Shown here: positions 1 to 11,799 of the stretch, piece by piece
How positions within the stretch are numbered: position 1 is the stretch's first letter
Layout of the letters: every line of letters starts with the position of its first letter
Virus record (IMG/VR): IMGVR_UViG_2778261689_000009
Coordinates: 1 to 11,799 of that record
Reading direction: 5' to 3' (one strand)
Origin: a virus
Lineage: Duplodnaviria; Heunggongvirae; Uroviricota; Caudoviricetes
DNA: 11,799 bases
Position numbers and translations under genes: made by a program
Notes under the pieces: generated by a model
The model's input: the letters and a program-made list of their open reading frames with translations, nothing else
Told to the model about the DNA's origin: nothing
Database searches by the model: none

Positions 1-432
1 CATTTGATCATATGACAAGATGTGTATCCACCTTAACTTAATGATTTTTACCAAAATCATTAGGGGATTCATCAGCACCAAGCCTATTCTGATAATATCC
101 TTATTGAGTTCTTTATGGATATCAACCACACTATCGAAAACTTCTTGAAACAAATGTAAGTCTACCTCTTGCTCAGAATCCATACGTTCAAAAAACAAAT
201 CACATCTCTGCAGTGAGCATTGAACTCTAAATTTATTATCTATAGAAAACAATTGGAGACGAGGAATCTCTGGTGGGGTATCCATAGGTAAAACGCCCAA
301 CATCATATTGTTTGTTAATTCAATACCTGCCTTCTTTTTAAAAGTTTGCCTAATAAAATACGACATTCCATCGAAATCGACAGTCGTTGATGAATCGTAA
401 AAAAATACCATTTGTAACTGTATGATTTTCAT
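1..432 (-). CDS. Hypothetical protein, AT-rich accessory gene, C-terminally truncated by the window edge (at least 144 aa)
   Basis: Not in the ORF track because it has no in-window stop. Reverse-complement ATG at 430-432 opens a frame that runs uninterrupted to position 1 (MKIIQLQMVFFYDSSTTVDFDGMSYF...). The region is visibly AT-rich compared with neighbouring P. It lies downstream of P, where lambda has ren. No recognisable family. Confidence 0.45.
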   Translation of the reverse strand, partial: MKIIQLQMVFFYDSSTTVDFDGMSYFIRQTFKKKAGIELTNNMMLGVLPMDTPPEIPRLQLFSIDNKFRVQCSLQRCDLFFERMDSEQEVDLHLFQEVFDSVVDIHKELNKDIIRIGLVLMNPLMILVKIIKLRWIHILSYDQM

Positions 433-584
433 CCTATATTCCAGGTTTCAGCAATTTAAATTTGGCGCATTATTCTAGCTTACAACAGCAACATTTTTGA
501 AGGGCTTTGCTAAAACTTTTATTCTCAGTGGCATTAATTTCAACCAATAGGACCTGAACAGAAAAAAACATAAAAATCAATGCA

Positions 585-1307
585 TTATTTCGAAATCTTT
601 TTATATAATGCTTTTCCCCCTTTCAGCCCAAACTTAGCTTTGATTTCTGCGATCTTCGCCAGAGCCTGTGCACGATTTAGAGGTCTACCGCCCATGACAG
701 GAAGCTGTTTTACTGGTTCAGGTATCGCCTCACCACGGTTAATTCGCGCGGTCATACAGGACAGTTCATCGGCAGCCTTGCGCCGTAATTCCGCATCAGT
801 AAGCGCATTGGCCCGCATGTTCTGGTACAGGTTGGTAACCAGCCAGTAGTGCGCGTTTGATTTCCATGGATAAGACTCTGCGTCCGGATACAGGCCACGC
901 TTCCGGCAATACTCGTAAACCATATCAACCAGCTCGCTGGCGTTTGGCAGCCCGGCGGTAACGGATGCTTCTTCCCGGCACCAGGCAACAAACTGCCCGG
1001 GTGATGGCAGGAATGGTCGATTCTGCCGACGGGCTACGCGCATTCCTGCGTTAACCTGTTCCATCGTGGTGATCCCGTTTTCCCGGAAAGCCAGAACCCA
1101 CTGGCGGCGGATTTCGTTCAGTTCGTTCTGGTCCCGGTTAGCCAGGCTCGCCGGGAAAGTTGCCAGTAACTGGCTGAACACACCATTGATGATCTGCGCT
1201 ACCTGTTGTACCTGCGGCTTTTCGTCGTACTGTTCCGGCATGTTGTTGGCGATCCGGCGCATCTGCTCACGGTCAAAGTTAACCATCTGTGCGGCGATGT
1301 TTTTCAT
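585..1307 (-). CDS. P: Replication protein P (DnaB helicase loader), lambda P-like
   Basis: 240-aa translation MKNIAAQMVNFDREQMRRIANNMPEQYDEKPQVQQ... matches lambda P over almost the whole length as I recall it; the last ~10 residues differ. Start overlaps the O stop in an ATGA (rev-comp of 1304-1307). Confidence 0.9.
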   Translation of the reverse strand: MKNIAAQMVNFDREQMRRIANNMPEQYDEKPQVQQVAQIINGVFSQLLATFPASLANRDQNELNEIRRQWVLAFRENGITTMEQVNAGMRVARRQNRPFLPSPGQFVAWCREEASVTAGLPNASELVDMVYEYCRKRGLYPDAESYPWKSNAHYWLVTNLYQNMRANALTDAELRRKAADELSCMTARINRGEAIPEPVKQLPVMGGRPLNRAQALAKIAEIKAKFGLKGGKALYKKISK

Positions 1308-2233
1308 AAATCCACCCCGTAAATCCAGTCAGTGTTTGTCAGGTCGAGTTTTGATTTTCCGGCTGTCACGCCAGCCTGTTGCTTGTTACGGTTGATTTCG
1401 AGTTGGGTCCACTTGTCGCGGAGTTTGGCCGGACTTAGCACGTTACCGGACCAGAAGTTGTCCTGGCATGCCCAGCGGAACAGTACACACATATCGCGGT
1501 GGTTACGTCCGTCACGTTCACGCATCAGGCGGATATCGTTAGCCCACCCTGCAAAATTCGGTTTTCTGGCTGATGGCGCGATGGTCTTCACCATGTCAAA
1601 CATCCACTCTGCGGCGGTCAGGTCTTCTGCTGTCCCCCACCTGCTGCCGCTCTGAATTGCAGCATCTGGTTTCTCCACAGGAAGATCGTTTTCTGGTTGG
1701 TCAGAGGATTCGCCAGAATTCTCGGACGAAAAAGGTTTTATATTGTCTTTTGTTAGTTTGTCTTTTGTGTTTACCTGATTCGGGTAAACGCCTTTACCTG
1801 ATTTGGGTAAACTTTTCTTACCTGATTCAGGTAAATTTACCTCTTTCAGGTAAACTTTATTTTTCTTACCTGATTCGGGTAATGTTGACCATTCACTGAC
1901 CACATTATTAATGCCTATATTCCGCCCGCTCTGAATAAAAATCCCACGCTTTACCAGAGCACTTTTTGCAGCAGAACACTTGTGCGGCAATATCCCGGTC
2001 AACTCGGAAAGTTGCTCGTTGCTCACCCAATCCAGTTTTTTATTAAAGCCATATGTTTTGCGCATGACAGCCAGAAAGACCAGAAGCTGGTGCTGTGTTA
2101 ATCCGGCCAGCATCACAGCTTCCAGCAACTCATTTGCAATGCGCGTATAACCATCATCGAGATCTGCCACGCGCGGCTCCTTTTGTGCCGCATCCGGCAC
2201 TGGAAAATTGAATATCTCAGCAGTGTTTGCCAT
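1304..2233 (-). CDS. O: Replication initiator protein O, lambda O-like
   Basis: Similarity to lambda O begins at MANTAEIFNF...VADLDDGY; ATG at 2233-2231 is preceded by GGGAGG (rev-comp of 2238-2243). The track ORF extends to an ATG at 2323 that overlaps the upstream gene's stop (ATGA), so a 339-aa form is possible. Iteron-encoded repeats LPESGKK/LPKSGK lie mid-protein. Confidence 0.85.
   Translation of the reverse strand: MANTAEIFNFPVPDAAQKEPRVADLDDGYTRIANELLEAVMLAGLTQHQLLVFLAVMRKTYGFNKKLDWVSNEQLSELTGILPHKCSAAKSALVKRGIFIQSGRNIGINNVVSEWSTLPESGKKNKVYLKEVNLPESGKKSLPKSGKGVYPNQVNTKDKLTKDNIKPFSSENSGESSDQPENDLPVEKPDAAIQSGSRWGTAEDLTAAEWMFDMVKTIAPSARKPNFAGWANDIRLMRERDGRNHRDMCVLFRWACQDNFWSGNVLSPAKLRDKWTQLEINRNKQQAGVTAGKSKLDLTNTDWIYGVDL
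1772..1882. repeat. Replication origin iterons: five copies of a ~16-bp palindromic TACCTGATTCGGGTAA-like repeat, flanked by an AT-rich tract at ~1735-1770
   Basis: Copies at 1772-1787, 1795-1810, 1819-1834, 1838-1853 (diverged) and 1867-1882, each of TACC...GGTA form, inside the O coding sequence as in ori-lambda. The adjacent T-rich tract tattgtcttttgttagtttgtcttttgtg fits a DNA-unwinding element. Confidence 0.75.
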
Positions 2234-2319
2234 AATTCCTCCCGCAATGAGTGCATTACGATTTGCACCTGAAAGTCGGTTCTGTTCCCGCAGACCGGCT
2301 TTCGCCATTTCTGAACCTG

Positions 2320-2865
2320 TCATATTGCCCCCAGCATGGTGGTAACCATCGCCATCAATGGACCAGCCAGATCAGGATCCACACGAAACATCGACACAAT
2401 GCCTTCACTCATCTCCTTCAGTTTCTGGTGGCGTGGTGCGTTGAGAATGACCGCCTGTTTTGCCTCGCTGAGCTCCTTTTCCATTTCAGCCAGTCGAGCC
2501 ATGAAGCTATCCTGCTCAACCAGGTGGCCGCGATATTTCAGCGGTAGTACTGCCAGAATTGCTGGAGTCAGTTCACGCACGTTATTTCGGTATTTTTCAG
2601 AATCGAATTTGTTATCGAGAAAGCGGAACAGCTTCTGGCGTGCACGACTGACATCATCAGGAAAATCGATAGTGCCGCCGCCCTGTGCTCGATACTCATT
2701 CACAATGAGTGCGGCAACAACATCCTGATTATCTGCAGCCGACCAGGCGCGGACGGCATCACGGATTTTTTCGTGGCCTGGAGCTTGTTTTGTTTGAGAA
2801 CGATTTATCACCGCAGTCGGGCTAAATCCGCTAGTCTGTTGGTATGTAAGTGGTTGCATAGTCAT
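2320..2865 (-). CDS. YdaT-like protein (Rac-prophage type) occupying the cII position
   Basis: 181-aa ORF between the Cro-like gene and O, same strand. From memory it shares short motifs with E. coli Rac YdaT (EYRAQGGG, LTPAILAVLP); unverified. Its stop overlaps an ATG at 2323 (ATGA). Confidence 0.55.
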   Translation of the reverse strand: MTMQPLTYQQTSGFSPTAVINRSQTKQAPGHEKIRDAVRAWSAADNQDVVAALIVNEYRAQGGGTIDFPDDVSRARQKLFRFLDNKFDSEKYRNNVRELTPAILAVLPLKYRGHLVEQDSFMARLAEMEKELSEAKQAVILNAPRHQKLKEMSEGIVSMFRVDPDLAGPLMAMVTTMLGAI

Positions 2866-2889
2866 TGCCTTATCAGTTAACGCCGCAGT

Positions 2890-3117
2890 TTAGGCGGCAG
2901 AATTACTCGCGTTAAACAATGGTGCGAGGTCGGGACGAATATCTGCTGGTTTAATCTTTCCACCAGTGGCTGAGACAATTTTCATTACATAGCGGGCATC
3001 AATTCCGCCACCGTGTAGCCAACGCCAAACAGTGGGTTGGGCTACACCGCATAGATCTGCCAGTCGTTTTTGACTACCTGTAATACTGATTGCGAGTTGA
3101 ATGGTTTGATTTGTCAT
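2890..3117 (-). CDS. Cro-like helix-turn-helix regulator (YdaS/Cro family)
   Basis: Small HTH protein (MTNQTIQLAISITGSQKRLADLCGVAQPTVWRWLHGG...) divergent from the CI-like repressor. The track uses a TTG at 3123; the ATG at 3117-3115 with an upstream AGGA is preferred. Confidence 0.75.
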   Translation of the reverse strand: MTNQTIQLAISITGSQKRLADLCGVAQPTVWRWLHGGGIDARYVMKIVSATGGKIKPADIRPDLAPLFNASNSAA

Positions 3118-3123
3118 TATCAA

Positions 3124-3227
3124 TTCCTATTGGTATTGCAATGAACAAATAATAGCAATGCGTATTAACCATAGCAATAGCAAAACGTGTTTTGACCATC
3201 GATACGCAAGCGTATAAATTAAAACTT
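3124..3227. promoter_or_regulatory. oR-like immunity control region with divergent promoters: pR-like (minus; -35 TTGCTA rev-comp of 3172-3177, 17-bp spacer, -10 TATTAT rev-comp of 3149-3154) and pRM-like (plus; -35 TTGACC 3192-3197, -10 ATAAAT 3214-3219)
   Basis: Hexamers and spacers read directly from the sequence. Repeated ATAGCAAT motifs (3152-3159, 3171-3178), palindromic ATTGCAAT (3135-3142) and near-palindrome CAATGCGTATTA (3156-3167) are candidate operators; the same motifs recur at 4926-5000. Confidence 0.5.
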
Positions 3228-3920
3228 ATGAAAAAAGAAACTCTTGCTGATCGCTTAAACCTAGCGATGGAACAATCTGGAATGTCTCAAGGCGCTCTTG
3301 CAAAGGCGTCTGGTGTAGCTCAACCCACAATCTGGAGACTGACAAGCGGCAATGCACGCGGATCTACAAGAATTGTCGAAATCGCTAATGCACTTGGGGT
3401 TCGCACTGAATGGCTTTCCTCAGGCATAGGCCCTATGAGGGATAATGGCGTTCAGCCAGGAAAACCGGCGACCTGCTCTTCCAAATACTTCAAGATTGAC
3501 GTTCTTGATATGGAAGTAAGTGCAGGGCCAGGCGTCATTAACCGTGAGTTCGTTGAAGTTTTGCGATCGGTTGAGTACTCCCATGATGATGCGCGTCACA
3601 TGTTTGATGGCCGCAAAGCAGAAAACATCCGCATCATTAACGTGCGTGGCGACAGCATGTCAGGAACGATCGAACCAGGTGACCTGCTGTTCGTCGATAT
3701 CAGCGTCAAATCGTTCGACGGCGATGGGATTTATGCGTTCCTCTACGACGAAACCGCTCATGTAAAACGTCTGCAAATGATGAAGGATAAGCTGCTGGTT
3801 ATCTCTGATAACAAGAGCTACTCACCGTGGGACCCGATCGAGAAAGACGAGATGAACCGAGTGTTCATCTTCGGGAAAGTCATCGGGAGCATGCCGCAGA
3901 CGTACAGGAAGCATGGATAA
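3228..3920 (+). CDS. CI-like prophage repressor: N-terminal HTH plus C-terminal LexA/S24 autopeptidase domain
   Basis: HTH segment MSQGALAKASGVAQPTIWRL; candidate Ala-Gly cleavage site in EVSAGPGV; S24 catalytic motifs VRGDSMSGTIEPGDLLFVD and HVKRL. Start taken as ATG 3228 (the track's 3192 is a TTG), which lies ~8 nt after the putative -10. Confidence 0.9.
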   Translation: MKKETLADRLNLAMEQSGMSQGALAKASGVAQPTIWRLTSGNARGSTRIVEIANALGVRTEWLSSGIGPMRDNGVQPGKPATCSSKYFKIDVLDMEVSAGPGVINREFVEVLRSVEYSHDDARHMFDGRKAENIRIINVRGDSMSGTIEPGDLLFVDISVKSFDGDGIYAFLYDETAHVKRLQMMKDKLLVISDNKSYSPWDPIEKDEMNRVFIFGKVIGSMPQTYRKHG

Positions 3921-3995
3921 AAATCTTGCTATTTATATTCATGAATACCTGCCCCCTGATTAACTCCACGCATCACTTGATATAAGGCACCAAAA

Positions 3996-4394
3996 ATGAG
4001 TAATGATGACAAATCTGTAAGTGATGAAGTATCTGATTTTCATAATAAAGTGAAAAATATTACAACCGCTCAATTTTCTGCATATTTAAAGCATGTTGGG
4101 GCAAATCATAACTGCTTATCTTGCGGTAAGGCTGAACTTATAGCAGTGCAAGACTGGCATTGGGATAAATTCAACAGCAAGGAAGGGAAAACAGATCTTA
4201 ATAATATTGAAAAATATACTGTTTTAAGGCTTTACAAGGTTGATGCTCCACATAGTAATGAGCAATGGAATATGACAAAAGAAAACCTAATGGATTATGA
4301 GTTTAGAGTGATATGCAAACATTGCGGATTCGTTACAAGTTATTTGGCATGGCTTGTTTTCTACTGGCTAAAGAATAACGAAGTTGACCAATAA
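3996..4394 (+). CDS. Hypothetical protein with two CxxCG knuckles (possible zinc ribbon); first gene of the immunity-region cassette
   Basis: 132-aa ORF with Cys40/Cys43 (CLSCG) and Cys107/Cys110 (CKHCG), an acidic N-terminus and an aromatic-rich C-terminus (YLAWLVFYWL). Clearly AT-rich relative to the flanking repressor and Red genes. Weak AAGG upstream. No recognisable family. Confidence 0.6.
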   Translation: MSNDDKSVSDEVSDFHNKVKNITTAQFSAYLKHVGANHNCLSCGKAELIAVQDWHWDKFNSKEGKTDLNNIEKYTVLRLYKVDAPHSNEQWNMTKENLMDYEFRVICKHCGFVTSYLAWLVFYWLKNNEVDQ

Positions 4395-4414
4395 TGACAT
4401 CCGGGCCAGAATAA

Positions 4415-4807
4415 ATGAATCCTTTTGATAATATTGCTCCTCTTTTCCCTGAGGGGGATGATAGAAATAACCATAAAAACGGTGGTAGTGATGGTGGGGG
4501 GAATGGCATGCTCGAGGTCAGAGTTGCAAAACTTGAAGCCGACGTTGAAAACATCAAGATAAACTTAGCGGAAACTCGCGCGGATGTGAGAGAGCTGACA
4601 AAAATTACCTCTTCTATAAAAACTGATGTTTCTACGATACTTCAAAAACTTGTAGATATTGACGAAAAGTTATCTCATAAAGCAAGTAAGGATTTTGTCG
4701 AAGTAAAAACAGGTAATTTAAAGGCTTGGATGCTCGGAATTCTTCTCTTATCCGTTGCAATGCCAGTCATAACTTTGCTCGTAAATTTATACATGAAAAA
4801 AACATAA
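4415..4807 (+). CDS. Hypothetical coiled-coil protein with a single C-terminal transmembrane helix (tail-anchored; XhlA-like architecture)
   Basis: Gly-rich N-terminus (GGSDGGGNG), heptad-like central region (LEVRVAKLEADVENIKINLAETRADVRELTKI...) and hydrophobic C-terminus AWMLGILLLSVAMPVITLLVNLYMKKT. An internal ATG at 4508 preceded by a GGGGGGAA run is an alternative start (99 aa). Confidence 0.6.
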   Translation: MNPFDNIAPLFPEGDDRNNHKNGGSDGGGNGMLEVRVAKLEADVENIKINLAETRADVRELTKITSSIKTDVSTILQKLVDIDEKLSHKASKDFVEVKTGNLKAWMLGILLLSVAMPVITLLVNLYMKKT

Positions 4808-4832
4808 CCCGGCCACCGCGCCGGGTTTTCTT
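4808..4832 (+). terminator. Rho-independent terminator closing the cassette
   Basis: GC stem CCCGGC (4808-4813) / GCCGGG (4820-4825) with a 6-nt loop, then TTTTCTT, immediately after the stop at 4805-4807. An A-run at 4793-4799 could allow bidirectional function. Confidence 0.65.
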
Positions 4833-4925
4833 CCCCCCTTCCCCAACACACTCAACGTCTAAAAAACAACCACAATCTCACTTCAGCTATCGCTACGCGA
4901 TGCAAACCACAAAATAAATTCTTTT

Positions 4926-5003
4926 TGCTATCAATGATTTAATAACCAATCGCATCAAGCAATAACAATACGTATTGATATAGCCAATAGCAATAGCTAT
5001 TAT
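4926..5003 (+). promoter_or_regulatory. oL/pL-like region: candidate pL (-35 TTGATA 4975-4980, 17-bp spacer, -10 TATTAT 4998-5003) overlapped by operator-like repeats
   Basis: Perfect 12-bp palindrome CAATACGTATTG (4966-4977), ATAGCAAT (4987-4994) and TTGCTAT (4926-4932) match the motifs at 3135-3178. The promoter faces the gam-bet-exo-xis-int genes. Confidence 0.5.
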
Positions 5004-5288
5004 CATTCCATCGCAACGACACAGCGATGGGGCAACCACCAGTTCACCCGCTTCACCGTTGCGATGACCGCTTAGATCCGCAGCTTGAATTTCAGCAGGT
5101 TCCGGGGAGTGCGAGGGGTGAAACGGACGTGTGAACGTCGGTGTGACCATCTGGAATCAACTCAACACTTCATACCTCAGTCGCTTCACCGAGGCGGCTT
5201 AGTTATGACTAACGGCGGCCATCCACCGCCAGATTAAGCGCAGAAGTCTTCATATGTTCAGCAGCCCAGCTTACGGGCAGGAGTTTTT

Positions 5289-5495
5289 ATGGTTCATCAA
5301 CATTACGGCACTCAGACCGTCAATCGCGGTGCCGTCCGGCCAGGAATGCTGGTTAAGCACAAAGATGGCACCTGGACAGCATCAGCTAATTTACGCGGTC
5401 GGCTTTATCTACACCGCGGTATCGAGCGCACCTACACCCGTGATTTGCTCGTAGAAGTTTTTCTCGATGGGCGCGGCAACGGCCTGAATCACTAA
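5289..5495 (+). CDS. Hypothetical small protein in the kil position, immediately upstream of gam
   Basis: 68-aa ORF with a good RBS (AGGAG, 5 nt before the ATG at 5289). I do not recognise it as lambda Kil or N. The overlapping 5254 frame lacks an RBS. Confidence 0.5.
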   Translation: MVHQHYGTQTVNRGAVRPGMLVKHKDGTWTASANLRGRLYLHRGIERTYTRDLLVEVFLDGRGNGLNH

Positions 5496-5570
5496 TCCCC
5501 TTTCCTGTTTTCCTAATCAGCCTGGCATTTCGCTGGCGATATTTTCACAGCCATTTTCAGGAGTTCAGCC

Positions 5571-5867
5571 ATGAACGCTTATTACATTCAGGATCGTCTT
5601 GAGGCTCAGAGCTGGGCGCGTCACTACCAGCAGATCGCCCGTGAAGAGAAAGAGGCAGAACTGGCAGACGACATGGAAAAAGGCCTGCCCCAGCACCTAT
5701 TTGAATCGCTATGCATCGATCATTTGCAACGCCACGGGGCCAGCAAAAAAGCCATTACCCGTGCGTTCGATGACGATGTTGAGTTTCAGGAGCGCATGGC
5801 AGAACACATCAGGTACATGGTTGAAACCATTGCTCACCACCAGGTTGATATTGATTCAGAGGTATAA
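5571..5867 (+). CDS. gam: Gam, host RecBCD nuclease inhibitor (lambda Red gamma, short form)
   Basis: Translation [60 protein letters not shown]...[10 protein letters not shown] is nearly identical to lambda GamS from memory; AGGAG RBS upstream. Confidence 0.92.
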
Positions 5868-5872
5868 AACGG

Positions 5873-6658
5873 ATGAGTACAGCACTCGCAACGCTGGCTG
5901 GGAAGCTGGCTGAACGTGTCGGCATGGATTCTGTCGACCCACAGGAACTGATCACCACTCTTCGCCAGACGGCATTTAAAGGTGATGCCAGCGATGCGCA
6001 GTTCATCGCATTGTTGATCGTCGCCAACCAGTACGGCCTTAATCCGTGGACGAAAGAAATTTACGCCTTCCCTGATAAGCAGAACGGCATCGTTCCGGTG
6101 GTGGGCGTTGATGGCTGGTCCCGCATCATCAATGAAAACCAGCAGTTTGATGGCATGGACTTTGAGCAGGACAATGAATCCTGTACATGCCGGATTTACC
6201 GCAAGGACCGTAATCATCCGATCTGCGTTACCGAGTGGATGGATGAATGCCGCCGCGAACCATTCAAAACCCGCGAAGGCAGAGAAATCACCGGACCGTG
6301 GCAGTCGCATCCCAAACGGATGTTACGGCATAAAGCCATGATTCAGTGTGCCCGTCTGGCCTTCGGATTTGCGGGTATCTATGACAAGGATGAAGCCGAG
6401 CGCATTGTCGAAAATACCGCATACACTGCAGAACGTCAGCCGGAACGCGACATCACTCCGGTTAACGATGAAACCATGCAGGAGATTAACACTCTGCTGA
6501 TCGCCCTGGATAAAACATGGGATGACGACTTATTGCCGCTCTGTTCCCAGATATTTCGCCGCGACATTCGCGCATCGTCAGAACTGACACAGGCCGAAGC
6601 AGTGAAAGCTCTTGGATTCCTGAAACAGAAAGCCACTGAGCAGAAGGTGGTAGCATGA
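5873..6658 (+). CDS. bet: Bet, single-strand annealing protein (lambda Red beta)
   Basis: 261-aa translation [66 protein letters not shown]... matches lambda Beta essentially end to end; its stop overlaps the exo ATG (ATGA at 6655-6658). Confidence 0.95.
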
Positions 6659-7335
6659 CACCGGACATTATCCTGCAGCGTACCGGGATCGACGTGAGAG
6701 CTGTCGAACAGGGGGATGATGCATGGCACAAATTACGGCTCGGCGTCATCACTGCTTCAGAAGTTCACAACGTGATAGCAAAGCCCCGCTCAGGAAAGAA
6801 GTGGCCTGACATGAAAATGTCCTACTTCCACACCCTGCTGGCTGAGGTTTGCACCGGTGTGGCTCCGGAAGTTAACGCTAAAGCGCTGGCATGGGGAAAA
6901 CAGTACGAGAACGACGCCAGAACCCTGTTTGAGTTCACTTCCGGCGTAAATGTTATTGAATCCCCGATCATCTATCGCGACGAAAGTATGCGCACCGCCT
7001 GCTCTCCCGATGGTTTATGCAGTGACGGCAATGGCCTTGAGCTGAAATGCCCGTTTACCTCCCGGGATTTCATGAAGTTCCGGCTCGGTGGTTTCGAGGC
7101 CATAAAGTCGGCTTACATGGCCCAGGTGCAGTACAGCATGTGGGTGACGCGAAAAGATGCCTGGTACTTTGCCAACTATGACCCGCGCATGAAGCGTGAA
7201 GGCCTGCATTATGTCGTGATTGAGCGGAATGAAAAGTACATGGCGAGTTTTGACGAGATGGTGCCGGAGTTCATCGAAAAAATGGACGAGGCACTGGCTG
7301 AAATTGGTTTTGTATTTGGGGAGCAATGGCGATGA
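6655..7335 (+). CDS. exo: Exo, 5'-3' dsDNA exonuclease (lambda Red alpha)
   Basis: 226-aa translation [65 protein letters not shown]...GFVFGEQWR matches lambda exonuclease with a few substitutions. Confidence 0.95.
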
Positions 7336-7490
7336 AGCATCCTCACGATAATATCCGGGTAGGCACGATCACTTTCGTCTACTCCGTTACAAAGCGAGGC
7401 TGGATATTTCCCGGCCTTTCTGTTATCCGAAATCCCCTGAAAGCACAGCGGCTGGCTGAGGAGATAAATAATAAACGGGGGGCTGTATGA
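7332..7490 (+). CDS. Hypothetical small protein (52 aa), translationally coupled between exo and the methyltransferase
   Basis: ATG 7332 overlaps the exo stop (ATGA) and its own stop overlaps the methyltransferase ATG (ATGA at 7487-7490); [52 protein letters not shown]. Below the ORF-track cutoff; coding status rests only on the coupling geometry. Confidence 0.3.
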
Positions 7491-8044
7491 CTGATTTCAC
7501 CGGAAGCAATACTCCTGCCGAACATCGCGACAGCTGGCGCACACCACCAGAGATTTTTGCTGCGCTTAATGCAGAGTTCGTTTTTCAACTTGATGCTGCC
7601 GCCAGCGAAAAAAACCGACTATGTCGGCTTTTTATCTCACAGGAGCAGAACACATTAACCACTTCATGGCCTGAAGCAATGGGATATGCCTCTGGTTATG
7701 TCTGGTTGAATCCACCATACAGCAATATTTCCCCTTTTGTGAAAAAGGCAGCCACTGAAAACAAATTCAGTAGTGTGGGATGTGTAATGTTATTGCCTGC
7801 TGACACATCTGTCGGATGGTTTCATGAAGCGATACAAACCGCCAGTGAGGTCAGATTCATCACGGCAGGACGACTGGCATTTATTAACCCGCTCACTGAG
7901 AAACCCGTCAGTGGAAATAATAAAGGCTCGATGCTCATTATCTGGCACCCATACCCCCGTACACACTGCCACTTTACGACCGTTGATCGTGGAGAGTTGA
8001 TGGCGTTCGGCTCAAGGATTCTTGCCCGTCGGGAGGCTGCATGA
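7487..8044 (+). CDS. Phage orphan DNA N6-adenine methyltransferase (Dam-like)
   Basis: 185-aa ORF with the amino-methyltransferase catalytic tetrapeptide NPPY (YVWLNPPYSNISPF). No adjacent restriction endonuclease candidate. Size and position resemble orphan methyltransferases in other enterobacterial prophages. Confidence 0.8.
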   Translation: MTDFTGSNTPAEHRDSWRTPPEIFAALNAEFVFQLDAAASEKNRLCRLFISQEQNTLTTSWPEAMGYASGYVWLNPPYSNISPFVKKAATENKFSSVGCVMLLPADTSVGWFHEAIQTASEVRFITAGRLAFINPLTEKPVSGNNKGSMLIIWHPYPRTHCHFTTVDRGELMAFGSRILARREAA

Positions 8045-8124
8045 CAACCACGGAATGCATTTTTCTGGCAGCGGGCTTCATATTCTGTGTGCTTATGCTT
8101 GCCGACATGGGACTTGTTCAATGA
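8041..8124 (+). CDS. Hypothetical 27-aa hydrophobic peptide (MTTTECIFLAAGFIFCVLMLADMGLVQ), translationally coupled on both sides
   Basis: ATG 8041 overlaps the methyltransferase stop (ATGA 8041-8044) and its stop overlaps the next ATG (ATGA 8121-8124). The sequence would form a single transmembrane helix. Could also be a purely regulatory coupling ORF. Confidence 0.3.
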   Translation: MTTTECIFLAAGFIFCVLMLADMGLVQ

Positions 8125-8336
8125 CACCTCAGCAGGAAAACGCCCTTCGCAGCATTGCCCGTCAGGCTAATTCTGAAATCAAAAAAGCCAGACAGCAGTT
8201 TCCGGATAAAAACGTCGATGACATTTGCCGTAGCGTACTGAAGAAGCACCGCGAAACGGTAACGCTGATGGGATTCACACCGACTCATTTAAGCCTGGCG
8301 ATCGGCATGTTAAACGGCGTCTTTAAGGAGCGATGA
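8121..8336 (+). CDS. Hypothetical protein (71 aa)
   Basis: MTPQQENALRSIARQANSEIKKARQQFPDKNVDDICRSVLKKHRETVTLMGFTPTHLSLAIGMLNGVFKER. Start chosen at the coupled ATG 8121 rather than the longer 8022 track ORF, which overlaps the methyltransferase. Confidence 0.5.
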   Translation: MTPQQENALRSIARQANSEIKKARQQFPDKNVDDICRSVLKKHRETVTLMGFTPTHLSLAIGMLNGVFKER

Positions 8337-8358
8337 ACATGAAAAGCAAAATCATCAG

Positions 8359-8385
8359 GGAGCTACAGGCTCCTTTTTTATTATT
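8359..8385 (+). terminator. Candidate weak intrinsic terminator or attenuator (tL-like)
   Basis: GGAGC (8359-8363) / GCTCC (8369-8373) stem with a 5-nt loop, followed by TTTTTTATTATT. The stem is short, so this is uncertain. Confidence 0.3.
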
Positions 8386-8434
8386 CGCATTCACCCTCAA
8401 GCGTATTAACCAACAATTCAGGGATTAATGGAAG

Positions 8435-8653
8435 ATGGCAGACATCATTGATTCAGCATCAGAAATCGAAGAATTACAGCGCAATACAGCAATAAAAATG
8501 CGTCGTCTGAACCACCAGGTTATATCTGCCACTCATTGTTGTGAGTGTGGCGATCCCATAGATGAACGAAGACGCCTGGCCGTTCAGGGTTGTCGGACTT
8601 GTGCAAGTTGCCAGGAGGAGATCGAACTTAAGAACAAACAATGGGGATTGTGA
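8435..8653 (+). CDS. TraR/DksA-family C4 zinc-finger protein
   Basis: 72 aa with C-x2-C-x14-C-x2-C (CECGDPIDERRRLAVQGCRTC), the size and motif spacing typical of phage and plasmid TraR-like RNA-polymerase secondary-channel binders. Confidence 0.75.
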   Translation: MADIIDSASEIEELQRNTAIKMRRLNHQVISATHCCECGDPIDERRRLAVQGCRTCASCQEEIELKNKQWGL

Positions 8654-8700
8654 TGGCCTCAAAGCAGCAAATTTCAACATCGTCCAACTGAGGTGTAAAA

Positions 8701-8979
8701 ATGTTCAGAATCATTTTTCCTAACACCTGGTACGTCGACCACCACGGCACTCCCTGCAAAATCCTGCGTTCTACCCACAACAAAGTTCACTACATCCGAA
8801 AAGGCAGAACATGTATCGCCAGCATGTTCCGCTTTAATCATGACTTTGAACCTGTGAATAAAGCTGATGCAGATCGGATAGCAGAAGAGATCGAAACGGC
8901 AGAACACATTAAGAAGTTACGTGACATGCGTTCAAAAAGCAGAGGTAACCATGGAATCATACAGCCTCACACTCGATGA
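8701..8979 (+). CDS. Hypothetical protein (92 aa) upstream of and overlapping xis
   Basis: Good RBS (GAGGTG ~7 nt before ATG 8701). The 3' end overlaps the xis start by 29 nt in another frame. No recognisable family. Confidence 0.5.
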   Translation: MFRIIFPNTWYVDHHGTPCKILRSTHNKVHYIRKGRTCIASMFRFNHDFEPVNKADADRIAEEIETAEHIKKLRDMRSKSRGNHGIIQPHTR

Positions 8980-9301
8980 GGCCTGTCAGTTTCTCAAGAT
9001 ATCCAGACCTACCGCTACCAACTGGATACGAACAGGCCGCCTACAGGCAACACGCAAAGACCCCACAAAACTAAAATCTCCTTACCTCACAACACGACAA
9101 GCCTGCATTGCGGCGCTTCAGTCTCCGCTGCATACTGTCCAGGTGAGCGCGGGTGATGGCATAACAGAGGAAAGAAAATGTCACTCTTCCGCAGAAGTGA
9201 AATATGGTACGCCAGTTTCACATTGCCGAACGGTAAAAGATTTAAACAGTCTCTTGGAACAAAGGACAAAAGGCAGGCGACAGAGCTCCATGACAAGCTA
9301 A
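8951..9301 (+). CDS. xis: Excisionase, P22 Xis-like
   Basis: [36 protein letters not shown]... resembles P22 Xis from memory; RBS AGAGGT before ATG 8951 (the track's 8921 start adds 10 residues with no RBS). Overlaps the int start. Confidence 0.8.
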
Positions 9302-10341
9302 AGGCTGAAGCATGGCGGGTCAGCAAACTTGGTGAAATACCTGATATGACGTTTGAGGAAGCGTGTGTCAGGTGGCTCGAAGAGAAAGCACATAAGAAAT
9401 CACTGGACGATGACAAAAGCCGGATCGGATTCTGGCTTCAACATTTCGCAGGGATGCAACTAAGAGACATTACTGAATCAAAAATTTATTCAGCAATGCA
9501 GAAAATGACGAACCGGCGTCATGAGGAAAACTGGAAACTCAGGGCAGAAGCATGCAGAAAAAAAGGGAAACCTGTTCCAGAATACACGCCAAAACCAGCG
9601 TCCGTTGCAACGAAGGCTACGCATCTTTCATTTATAAAGGCCCTACTAAGAGCCGCAGAGCGTGAATGGAAAATGCTGGATAAGGCACCAATTATTAAAG
9701 TGCCTCAACCAAAGAATAAACGGATCCGCTGGCTGGAGCCCCATGAAGCACAAAGGCTGATTGATGAATGTCCGGAGCCATTAAAGTCTGTTGTTGAATT
9801 TGCACTGGCAACAGGCTTAAGACGCTCGAACATCATCAACCTTGAATGGCAACAAATAGATATGCAGCGCCGGGTGGCATGGATAAACCCGGAAGAGAGT
9901 AAATCAAACCGCGCAATCGGCGTTGCGCTGAATGATACTGCATGTCGCGTTTTGAAAAAACAAATCGGGAATCATCACCGTTGGGTATTTGTGTACAAGG
10001 AAAGCTGTACCAAACCAGACGGAACGAAAGCGCCAACAGTAAGGAAGATGCGGTATGACGCAAACACAGCCTGGAAAGCGGCGCTGAGACGAGCAGGTAT
10101 TGATGATTTCAGATTTCACGACTTGAGACACACCTGGGCAAGTTGGCTGGTTCAAGCCGGAGTCCCGTTGTCAGTGTTACAGGAAATGGGAGGCTGGGAG
10201 TCTATCGAAATGGTTCGTCGATATGCTCACCTCGCACCTAATCACCTTACCGAACATGCACGGCAAATAGACTCGATCCTGAACCCATCGGTCCCAAATT
10301 TGTCCCAGTCAAAAAATAAGGAAGGTACTAATGATGTGTAA
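9178..10341 (+). CDS. int: Tyrosine integrase, P22 Int-like (thrW-specific)
   Basis: 387 aa, [53 protein letters not shown]..., very close to P22 Int as I recall it; tyrosine-recombinase motifs HDLRHT and VRRYAHL present; ends 15 bp from the tRNA. Confidence 0.95.
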
Positions 10342-10355
10342 CTTATTGATTTTAA

Positions 10356-10431
10356 TGGTGCCGATAATAGGAGTCGAACCTACGACCTTCGCATTACGAA
10401 TGCGCTGCTCTACCAACTGAGCTATATCGGC
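10356..10431 (-). tRNA. thrW: tRNA-Thr (anticodon CGU), thrW, including 3' CCA; phage attachment target
   Basis: Reverse complement reads GCCGATATAGCTCAGTTGGTAGAGCAGCGCATTCGTAATGCGAAGGTCGTAGGTTCGACTCCTATTATCGGCACCA, a 76-nt cloverleaf-compatible tRNA with anticodon loop TTCGTAA. The 3' end faces the integrase. Confidence 0.92.
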
Positions 10432-10545
10432 CCTGAAAGGACATGTTCACGAACGTGAATCACGGTGGACAAGGTTAAAACTAACCGGGCGATGCGTCAA
10501 TGGCCTTGTGAATCAAATGGCTACTTTTGCATCACCCGGTTTTAT

Positions 10546-11799
10546 TTACGCACGAATGGTGTAATCACCAATGCCGATCCACTTGTAAGTGGTCAGTGCT
10601 TCCAGCCCCATTGGGCCACGCGCGTGGAGTTTTTGTGTGCTTACCGCCACTTCCGCACCCAGACCAAACTGGCCGCCGTCGGTAAAACGCGTAGAGGCGT
10701 TAACGTAAACAGCGGACGAATCCACTTCGTTAACAAAACGCTGGGCGTTGCGCATATCGCGGGTCAGGATCGCATCGGAGTGTTGTGTGCCGTGTTCACG
10801 AATATGGGCGATGGCATCGTCAAGATCGCTGACGATTTTGACGTTCAAATCTAATGACAGAAACTCATCGTCATACTCTTCGGCTTTAACAGCAACCACC
10901 TTCGCAGGGCCTGCCTGCAACTGCGCCAGTGCAGCTGCATCTGCGTGTAATGTCACGCCGCTTTCCGCCATTTGTTTGCTTAATGCGGGCAGGAAGCTAT
11001 CGGCGATGTTTTTATTCACCAGCAACGTTTCAACCGTATTACATGTGCTCGGACGCTGAGTTTTCGCGTTGACGATCACTTTTAATGCTTCAGCGATCTC
11101 TACACTTTCATCAACGTAAATATGGCATACGCCTATACCACCTGTGATCACCGGGATTGTCGACTGTTCACGGCACAGTTTATGCAAACCAGCGCCACCA
11201 CGCGGGATCAGCATGTCGATGTATTTATCCATACGCAGCATTTCACTGACCAGCGCACGGTCAGGATTATCAATCGCCTGCACGGCACCCGCCGGTAAGC
11301 CGCAGGATTTCAGGGCGTCCTGAATCACCGCCACCGTTGCAGCGTTAGTGCGACACGTTTCTTTGCCACCGCGCAGGATCACCGCATTACCGGTTTTCAG
11401 GCACAGCGAAGCGACATCAACCGTCACGTTCGGGCGCGCTTCATAAATCACGCCAATAACCCCCAGCGGTACGCGACGACGCTCAAGACGCAGGCCGCTG
11501 TCCAGTACGCCGCCATCGATTACCTGCCCCACCGGATCGGCGAGGTTGCACACCTGACGTACATCGTCGGCAATGCCTTTCAGCCGTGCGGGCGTCAGTG
11601 CCAGACGGTCAAGCATCGCTTCGCTAAGGCCATTGGCTCGCGCGTCAGCAACATCCTGGGCGTTAGCGTTGAGGATGATTTCGCTTTGTGCTTCCAGTTC
11701 ATCGGCGATTTTTTCCAGCACGCGATTTTTTTCGCGGCTGGAGAGTTGCGCTAATTTATACGAGGCTTGCTTCGCGGCAATGCCCATTTGTTCCAGCAT
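10546..11799 (-). CDS. proA: Gamma-glutamyl phosphate reductase (host core gene)
   Basis: 417-aa translation [75 protein letters not shown]... matches enterobacterial ProA; the start codon sits exactly at the window end. Confidence 0.95.

Follow-up and report, generated by a model that had tools for sequence, protein, structure and literature searches.

The window analysed here comprises 11,799 nucleotides of the Caudoviricetes virus record IMGVR_UViG_2778261689_000009 in IMG/VR (positions 1 to 11,799) and represents the early region of a lambdoid prophage, with the order CI(S24) <-> cro - cII - (oop-like RNA) - O - P. Divergent from the repressor and upstream of the replication genes lie two genes whose products belong to the Pfam families YdaS_toxin and YdaT_toxin. 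These very probably encode the early pR-type regulators of an apparently complete lambdoid prophage at thrW by proA, the smaller product being a Cro analogue and the larger a CII of the phi80 type. A preliminary description of this DNA had placed a small helix-turn-helix (HTH) gene and a larger gene within 2320-3117 in place of lambda cro and cII, and both open reading frames (ORFs) were found, at 2890-3117 and 2320-2865:

2320-2859, minus strand: cII-position gene, phi80-type CII (Pfam YdaT_toxin family), 179 amino acids, a 540-nt gene in RefSeq
2890-3117, minus strand: cro-position gene, single-HTH protein (Pfam YdaS_toxin / Cro superfamily), 75 amino acids
3228-3920, plus strand: CI-type repressor, HTH and S24 autopeptidase (Peptidase_S24 9.2e-18, HTH_3 1.3e-6, PHROG 4 4.1e-67)

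The larger protein matches PF06254 (YdaT_toxin) at profile positions 1-90 of 92 (5.6e-29, 100.9 bits, cut-off 21) and, over its full length, PHROG 163, the 'CII-like transcriptional activator' (3.4e-66). It is 65.6% identical to phi80 cII over the full 180 residues, both tails included, whereas K-12 Rac YdaT is matched at 34% over 96 residues (BLASTP, E 1.4e-11). It was described beforehand as Rac-type; this holds for the protein families, but the closest system is phi80 rather than Rac. The phi80-type subfamily of cII products (~180 residues) is further marked by the C-terminal motifs EAKQAV...APxHQK...SEGI...GPLM in the alignment and by an M3/oop-like RNA region after the gene, which is also present here. 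The protein of phage 4A7 is 98.9% identical, and genes annotated as cII with 95-99% identity occur in 4A7, Lambda_4C10, D2, 1W, 3W, Perceval, the PhiR series, Turner and IdasGreatGrand. The PF06254 profile itself scores phi80 cII at 98.7 bits and Rac YdaT at only 44.7; judged by sequence, the Pfam YdaT_toxin family is in practice the phi80-CII family. phi80 cII is known from genetics as a lysis-lysogeny decision gene, and phi80 records name it as one. Lambda CII gave no BLASTP match to the larger protein at E<10, and the Phage_CII profile PF05269, which scores lambda CII itself at 1.1e-48, does not match the 179-residue protein.

The longest ORF at the cII position runs from 2320 to 2865 and would encode the 181 residues first reported. 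The true start is almost certainly the second ATG, at 2859, two codons further in, since an AAGG Shine-Dalgarno sequence lies 8 nt ahead of it, as against 2 nt ahead of the first ATG, and since homologues begin there (MQPLTYQQ / MHSLAYQH), as does the 540-nt RefSeq call. The figure of 181 is therefore replaced by 179.

Since the structure model of the larger protein was unusable, its fold was examined by a profile-to-PDB sequence search. A profile of 40 homologues matched CP-933P YdaT (8bt1, E 1e-8; 3c4r, E 1.2e-7) at positions 23-106, the DNA-binding domain; the single sequence matched the solved YdaT structures at E 1e-3. Arginine 79, in the helix QKLFRFLD, corresponds to the conserved arginine of recognition helix alpha3, a residue whose importance is known from studies of the Rac and CP-933P proteins. 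It is invariant in the homologue alignments and aligns with the arginine of FRW in CP-933P YdaT (Arg60, helix QKIFRWLD) and with that of HRW in Rac YdaT (R57 in PMC11879457).

The 75-residue protein matches PF15943 (YdaS_toxin) at 9.6e-15 and 54.6 bits (cut-off 30), with a weaker P22_Cro match, and PHROG 35, 'transcriptional repressor', at 9.4e-24. BLASTP aligns it with K-12 Rac YdaS at 32% over 63 residues (E 6e-10) and with lambda Cro at merely 26% over 46 residues (E 0.004). Its nearest PDB relatives are the Cro proteins 3bd1 and 5w8y (E ~1e-3), it is 100% identical to the cro-position protein of 4A7, and its gene is the first of the rightward operon, as expected for a member of the YdaS/Cro superfamily. 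For both proteins, the proposed resemblance to YdaS and YdaT is thus far beyond chance, and the statement that neither is the lambda protein is borne out. The word 'pair', on the other hand, is too strong. Of 80 loci with the same cII allele, 62 have this cro and the other 18 a cro of only 45-50% identity; one cII allele is joined to two cro types, so that the pairing of cro with cII is not obligatory. The cro and cII types reassort independently.

The two ORFs occupy exactly the cro and cII slots of lambda, the larger gene lying 3' of the cro-like gene, divergent from the repressor and upstream of the replication genes. Over bases 76-11799, the window shares 99.95% identity with a prophage that E. 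coli strain L9 (NZ_CP142044) carries at the tRNA-Thr gene adjoining proA. Its neighbourhood holds full replication, Q, lysis, terminase and integrase genes together with the tRNA-Thr attachment site, and by this gene set the prophage looks complete. In the window, the plus strand after CI carries two ORFs without known function, then, on the pL side, kil, gam, bet and exo, followed by a methyltransferase, an xis-like gene and the integrase:

585-1307, minus strand: lambda P gene
9178-10341, plus strand: integrase
10359-10431, minus strand: tRNA-Thr gene (71.8 bits), directly after the integrase and before proA; prophage attachment site, thrW-type locus

The switch region between cI and gene O contains further elements, the promoters having been predicted by a consensus scan:

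3149-3177, minus strand: predicted pR-like promoter for cro and cII, TTGCTA-17-TATTAT, extended TG
3192-3220, plus strand: predicted pRM-like promoter, TTGACC-17-TAAATT
2881-2899, minus strand: GC hairpin at the cro stop codon (GCCGCC...GCGGCG), in the 30-nt cro-cII spacer, -9 kcal/mol, z -2.5
2243-2312, plus strand: predicted oop / phi80-M3-like antisense RNA region, from the cII stop to the likely O start, with a 5' hairpin and a terminator-like hairpin
2208-2236, plus strand: predicted pO-like promoter toward cII, TTGAAT-17-CATAAT, extended TG, its -10 overlapping the likely O start

The pR-like and pRM-like promoters sit among repeated ATAGCAAT-type operator-like sequences (3116-3191). The -10 of the pRM-like promoter (TAAATT, 3215-3220) ends 7 nt ahead of the cI ATG and a Shine-Dalgarno sequence is absent, from which a leaderless cI mRNA is predicted. 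Leaderless repressor mRNAs are known for lambda cI and for paaR2 of CP-933P (PMC8630535). CI itself is 94% identical to the CI of 4A7 and 25% identical to that of lambda, and is unrelated to RacR.

In an alignment, the pO-like promoter falls on the corresponding stretch of phi80, HK225, mEp237 and lambda oop. Positions 2215-2335 align with the phi80 region encoding the annotated M3 RNA, the homologue of lambda oop, and 2234-2319 correspond to the phi80 interval between cII and gene 15 that holds M3. The region folds at -26.1 kcal/mol (z -3.6) in the two-hairpin layout of M3. Rfam gave no match in the immunity region, including none of the oop type, and the assignment rests on the alignment to the annotated M3 RNA and on folding.

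A hairpin equivalent to that at the cro stop codon is found at the same place in 4A7, phi80 and HK225 (in locus L007 at ~35632-35648) and is absent in mEp237. It is kept between phages with weakly similar cro genes (this one against gp30 of phi80 and HK225), and both proteins end in ...AA*. The hairpin is a possible pause, terminator or processing site. A role as nutR boxB was rejected: it is unlike the annotated phi80 nutL core CACGTAAACGTG, which makes a nut site unlikely, and the prophage has no N gene.

The function of the two proteins can be proposed from better-studied relatives. The YdaS and YdaT of CP-933P are Cro and CII analogues and not a toxin-antitoxin pair; this YdaT switches on a promoter that lies between ydaS and ydaT and faces the repressor gene, and was stated in 2021 to be homologous to phi80 CII (PMC8630535). 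In YdaT, POU-like HTH domains are assembled into a tetramer, which binds TTGATT-N6-AATCAA (PMC9986795). For Rac YdaT, binding to this box, activation of a reverse promoter that serves racR and toxicity on over-expression have been reported (PMC11879457). By homology, the 179-residue protein would consist of an N-terminal POU-like HTH domain followed by a long helix, which forms the tetramer in the solved homologue. By analogy with phi80 cII and with the YdaT of Rac and CP-933P, it would be made early from pR, would bind inverted repeats of the TTGATT-N6-AATCAA type and would boost transcription in the repressor direction, thus favouring lysogeny. The M3/oop-like antisense RNA downstream probably tempers cII expression, and the 75-residue protein would act as a single-HTH Cro analogue that represses at the cI-cro operators. 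The sequences themselves show the positions of the genes, their families and closest relatives, how frequent the locus is, where the mosaic borders lie and that the M3-like region is conserved. We infer which DNA the pair recognises, in what oligomeric state, which promoters it controls and every regulatory outcome; the lysogeny-establishment role of the larger protein and the Cro role of the smaller are assigned on homology and gene position.

One candidate site for the larger protein lies within the immunity region:

3106-3123: candidate CII-like binding palindrome TTGATTtgtcatTATCAA, one mismatch from TTGATT-N6-AATCAA, with the cro ATG in its spacer

It is the sole match to the YdaT box at one mismatch or fewer in the window, against a chance expectation of ~0.03 in 11.8 kb by our own estimate, and is regarded as a candidate binding site only. 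Looser matches (up to three mismatches) numbered 12 in the window against 9.1 expected, which is no enrichment. Among the 62 IMG/VR loci with this cro, the box is intact in 46 and degraded in the rest (e.g. TTAATA). A match at cII +48 in mEp237 was taken as chance; it falls on the conserved MINRxQ codons and is non-palindromic in other phages.

No observation contradicts the family assignment. Several weigh against the proposed Cro/CII mechanism. The candidate box is only partly conserved with its own cro type and is absent with other cro types, and no YdaT box within three mismatches lies at the cro/cII junction or the cII start, where the boxes of Rac and CP-933P sit. The consensus scan gave no activator-dependent pRE-like promoter. 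An AlphaFold2 model built on the 40-sequence alignment was poor (mean predicted local distance difference test, pLDDT, 59.8; predicted template modelling score 0.39), with the DNA-binding domain at ~46-59, and a Foldseek search of the PDB with this poor model gave no match below E 0.79. Helices were predicted at 119-138, 143-160 and 162-178, and block means of pLDDT reached 81-86 over residues 121-170 of the otherwise poor model. For the C-terminal 70 residues, with the two extra predicted helices at 143-178, the YdaT proteins of Rac and CP-933P offer no counterpart, so that the oligomeric state may differ. In the phi80-type subfamily, finally, the regulatory mechanism is a proposal from homology.

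A second palindrome, outside the window, suggests a different principal target for the larger protein:

L004 6513-6530 (the L9 prophage, ~3.3 kb past the left end of the window): perfect YdaT box TTGATTatcgcaAATCAA, ~165 bp upstream of ybcN
L006 42998-43015, L007 38718-38735, L009 39798-39815 and L010 ~786-803: copies of the palindrome upstream of ybcN, TTGAT[T/A]-N6-[A/T]ATCAA

According to this alternative, the main high-affinity CII target would be the palindrome that covers the -35 and the spacer of a promoter preceding ylcH-ybcN-ninE-rusA-Q, and not a pRE-type promoter, with the box at the cro ATG as a second operator. Binding would repress expression of the Q operon and would be the direct-repression counterpart of the CII-dependent paQ of lambda. 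We consider this arrangement possible but doubtful. The box is perfect in this prophage, in 4A7 and in the K-12 prophage DLP12. It is degenerate at the same place in phi80 and HK225 (TTGATA...TATCAA), where the phi80 copy is the sole match within two mismatches in that genome. The box forms the left edge of a conserved ylcH-ybcN module, with a conserved hairpin after the promoter. In 37 unique sequences upstream of ybcN, the half-sites scarcely change (24 are perfect and 8 have a single mismatch), but the spacer does, in 14 variants among the box-matched contexts; the upstream flank is not alignable. The recognition helix of the larger protein, moreover, is like that of CP-933P YdaT.

The box is found within 10 kb after cII in 48 of 57 phi80-type loci and in none of 43 lambda-cII loci, and ybcN is present in 61 of 80 of the former and in 4 of 80 of the latter. 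The Fisher p-values for these linkages (1e-19 and 7e-22) overstate independence, since the sampled IMG/VR loci are related prophages. Against a CII target, the box goes with the ybcN module and not strictly with the cII type, being kept in three of the four lambda-cII loci with ybcN and in DLP12, which lacks cII. TTGATT is, in addition, the -35 hexamer of a putative promoter in which CATAAT follows at 17 bp; the phage 82 record annotates the two elements as putative. Rac-type ydaT loci lack ybcN, and none of them has a downstream box (0 of 49). On these grounds, a box in the nin region as a general feature of the YdaT family was rejected. An FNR site has the form TTGAT-N4-ATCAA. As the half-sites here are separated by N8, FNR was dropped as the identity of the palindrome.

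Direct control of late-gene timing by phi80-type CII through this palindrome is accordingly put forward as a tentative idea, and an unlikely one. If true, it would provide a repressor-type counterpart of the CII/paQ control of lambda and a route for cross-talk between co-resident prophages such as DLP12. The palindrome of the ybcN/Q operon is the sole element here with research potential, as a possible second target for the CII family; in the Rac YdaT paper of 2025 and its precursor of 2023, neither this site nor ybcN or ylcH is mentioned.

That the two genes are inert remnants of a cryptic prophage is very improbable. Many E. coli prophages are defective, and in the source genome of the window an IS10 end lies inside a gene downstream of P. 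Both ORFs are nevertheless intact and 99-100% identical to those of isolated, plaque-forming phages, the neighbourhood in strain L9 still has its replication genes, Q, lysis and terminase genes and the integrase, in full, and the allele, with 391 stretches in IMG/VR and 666 homologues in the database, is conserved and widespread.

A toxin-antitoxin or toxin-toxin module causing growth arrest, and not phage regulation, is hardly credible: the Pfam names, the RefSeq name of the larger protein and the toxicity and filamentation of over-expressed Rac YdaS/YdaT (PMC5700377; PMC11879457) point that way, but the genes fill the cro and cII slots of a complete lambdoid early region, the larger protein is 66% identical to phi80 cII, its solved homologue is an HTH DNA-binding tetramer, CP-933P YdaT is non-toxic and is the activator of a promoter facing the repressor gene (PMC8630535), lambda CII is likewise toxic when over-produced (PMC5917428), PADLOC gave no match for the larger protein and only a marginal mad1 match (E 4.6e-4) for the smaller, and the occurrence of one cII allele with two cro types is at odds with an obligate cognate pair. 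The toxin label was noted from the outset as being debated in favour of Cro/CII analogues, and the literature agrees (PMC5917428, PMC8630535, PMC9986795, PMC11879457). We therefore retain the assignment as a Cro analogue and a phi80-type CII.

The remainder of the window places this switch in its mosaic context:

1304-2233, minus strand: replication initiator O (Phage_rep_O 5.9e-34); the annotated 339-residue ORF extends to 2323
1770-1884: five 20-bp ori iterons (TTTACCTGATTCGGGTAAAC) inside O, direct-repeat family D1
3996-4807: two ORFs in the rexA/rexB position downstream of cI, 132 and 130 amino acids, PHROGs 4293 and 3556
4806-4832: GC-rich hairpin ending the rexA/rexB-position ORFs, inside a 29-bp island of lambda homology beside the lambda rexB 3' end
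4975-5003: pL-like promoter
5289-5495, plus strand: kil

The true start of O is probably M31 at 2233, behind a GGAGG Shine-Dalgarno sequence, which would make the annotated ORF 30 codons too long. The O proteins of lambda and phi80 align from residue 31, and the start at M31 is also suggested by the extra 90 nt coinciding with the oop/M3-like RNA region and its promoter.

DNA similar to that of lambda spans 619-1770 (94.7% identity), which holds P and the C-terminal part of O, 5489-7489 (97.3%), with gam, bet and exo, and 8041-8630 (97.5%). At the protein level, identity to lambda is 98% for P, 99% for Bet, 98% for Exo, 98% for Gam and 66% for O, the last value being low because the N-terminal domain differs. 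Lambda homology stops at 1770, the edge of the iterons, so that the recombination junction divides O into an ori-specific N-terminal half and a lambda-type C-terminal half. The non-lambda block (~1771-5488) takes in ori specificity, cII, cro, cI, the two ORFs in the rexA/rexB position, pL and kil. A mosaic junction and, flanked by P and Red genes of lambda-like type, a non-lambda decision module, as proposed in the preliminary description, are thus present. Its view of O, P and the Red genes as near-lambda applies to P, the Red genes and the C-terminal part of O, but not to the N-terminal domain of O or the iterons, and the block, which does include the genes at 2320-3117, is wider than the region then pointed out. 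The window is a clean example of lambdoid mosaicism, a non-lambda immunity/ori/cII block lying within lambda-type P and Red genes.

The two ORFs in the rexA/rexB position gave no Pfam match and no meaningful PADLOC match, and may be lysogenic-conversion or exclusion genes. Between the pL-like promoter and kil (5003-5289), no N-like antiterminator ORF is present; a similar gap without annotation is present in phage 4A7. The pL leader starts with a hairpin, CCATCGC...GCGATGG, like the start of the phi80 pL transcript. At the other end of the window, positions 1-75, which we take to be IS10 terminal sequence, match the 3' part of the Rfam family RNA-OUT (32.3 bits) and are missing from the L9 prophage. 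The absence of this end from a near-identical prophage indicates that, in the source genome, IS10/Tn10 has inserted into the gene that lies downstream of P.

The module is very common. Of 5426 complete E. coli genomes, 2215 (~40%) contain DNA matching 2200-3250, and in 717 the match covers at least 80% of the query. A relative of the larger protein is encoded in 391 stretches of IMG/VR, the best 80 at 98-99% identity, and the 666 homologues in the protein database come from Escherichia, Citrobacter, Klebsiella, Enterobacter and Salmonella. RefSeq names the two products 'toxin YdaT domain-containing protein' and 'helix-turn-helix domain-containing protein'. The cro/cII pair is already known, being annotated, present in sequenced phages and treated in recent literature. 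The 'toxin' name, however, spreads from Pfam PF06254 into the RefSeq product names of bona fide phage cII genes, and in the mining of prophages for toxins or defence genes the pair should be treated as a Cro/CII switch.

Among known systems, 4A7 (Bievrevirus) and the other carrier phages have effectively the same module, and 4A7 shows the order CI-cro-cII-O-P and kil-gam-bet-exo as here. 4A7 and the other carrier phages differ in CI (94%), in the genes at the rexAB position, in the integration module and in the attachment site. phi80 cII is alike in length, in its slot between cro and an O-like gene, in the M3/oop-like RNA, in the hairpin at the cro stop and in its Pfam family. phi80 nevertheless has its own cro (gp30, 34% over 44 residues), another CI, an N gene and an O and P of 41% and 48% identity, and HK225, like phi80, has a cro type unlike that of this prophage. 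Here, unlike in phi80, this cII type is joined to lambda P, the lambda C-terminal part of O and the lambda Red genes.

The YdaT (8BT1) and YdaS of CP-933P in E. coli O157:H7 occupy the same slot, and YdaT has a homologous POU-like HTH and a similar recognition helix with an arginine. It differs in its low identity (~31%, in the DNA-binding domain only), its length of 141 residues and its longer alpha2-alpha3 loop. The phi80-type protein described here has a 28-residue N-terminal tail and ~70 extra C-terminal residues that the YdaT proteins of Rac and CP-933P lack. The CP-933P box lies at the end of ydaS, whereas the sole box in the immunity region here is at the cro ATG. Rac YdaS and YdaT belong to the same two Pfam families, fill the Cro and CII slots and are divergent from the repressor, and in both systems a start codon falls inside the spacer of the box; Rac differs in that RacR is unrelated to the CI described here, ydaU and ydaV replace O and P, the box is at the ydaT ATG and the ybcN module is absent. 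Lambda Cro and CII hold the same positions and presumably follow the same logic, with a pR operon, an oop-type antisense RNA and establishment of repressor synthesis. The DNA sites differ, however: those of YdaT-type proteins are inverted repeats, and those of lambda CII, which binds as an unusual dimer of dimers, are direct repeats.

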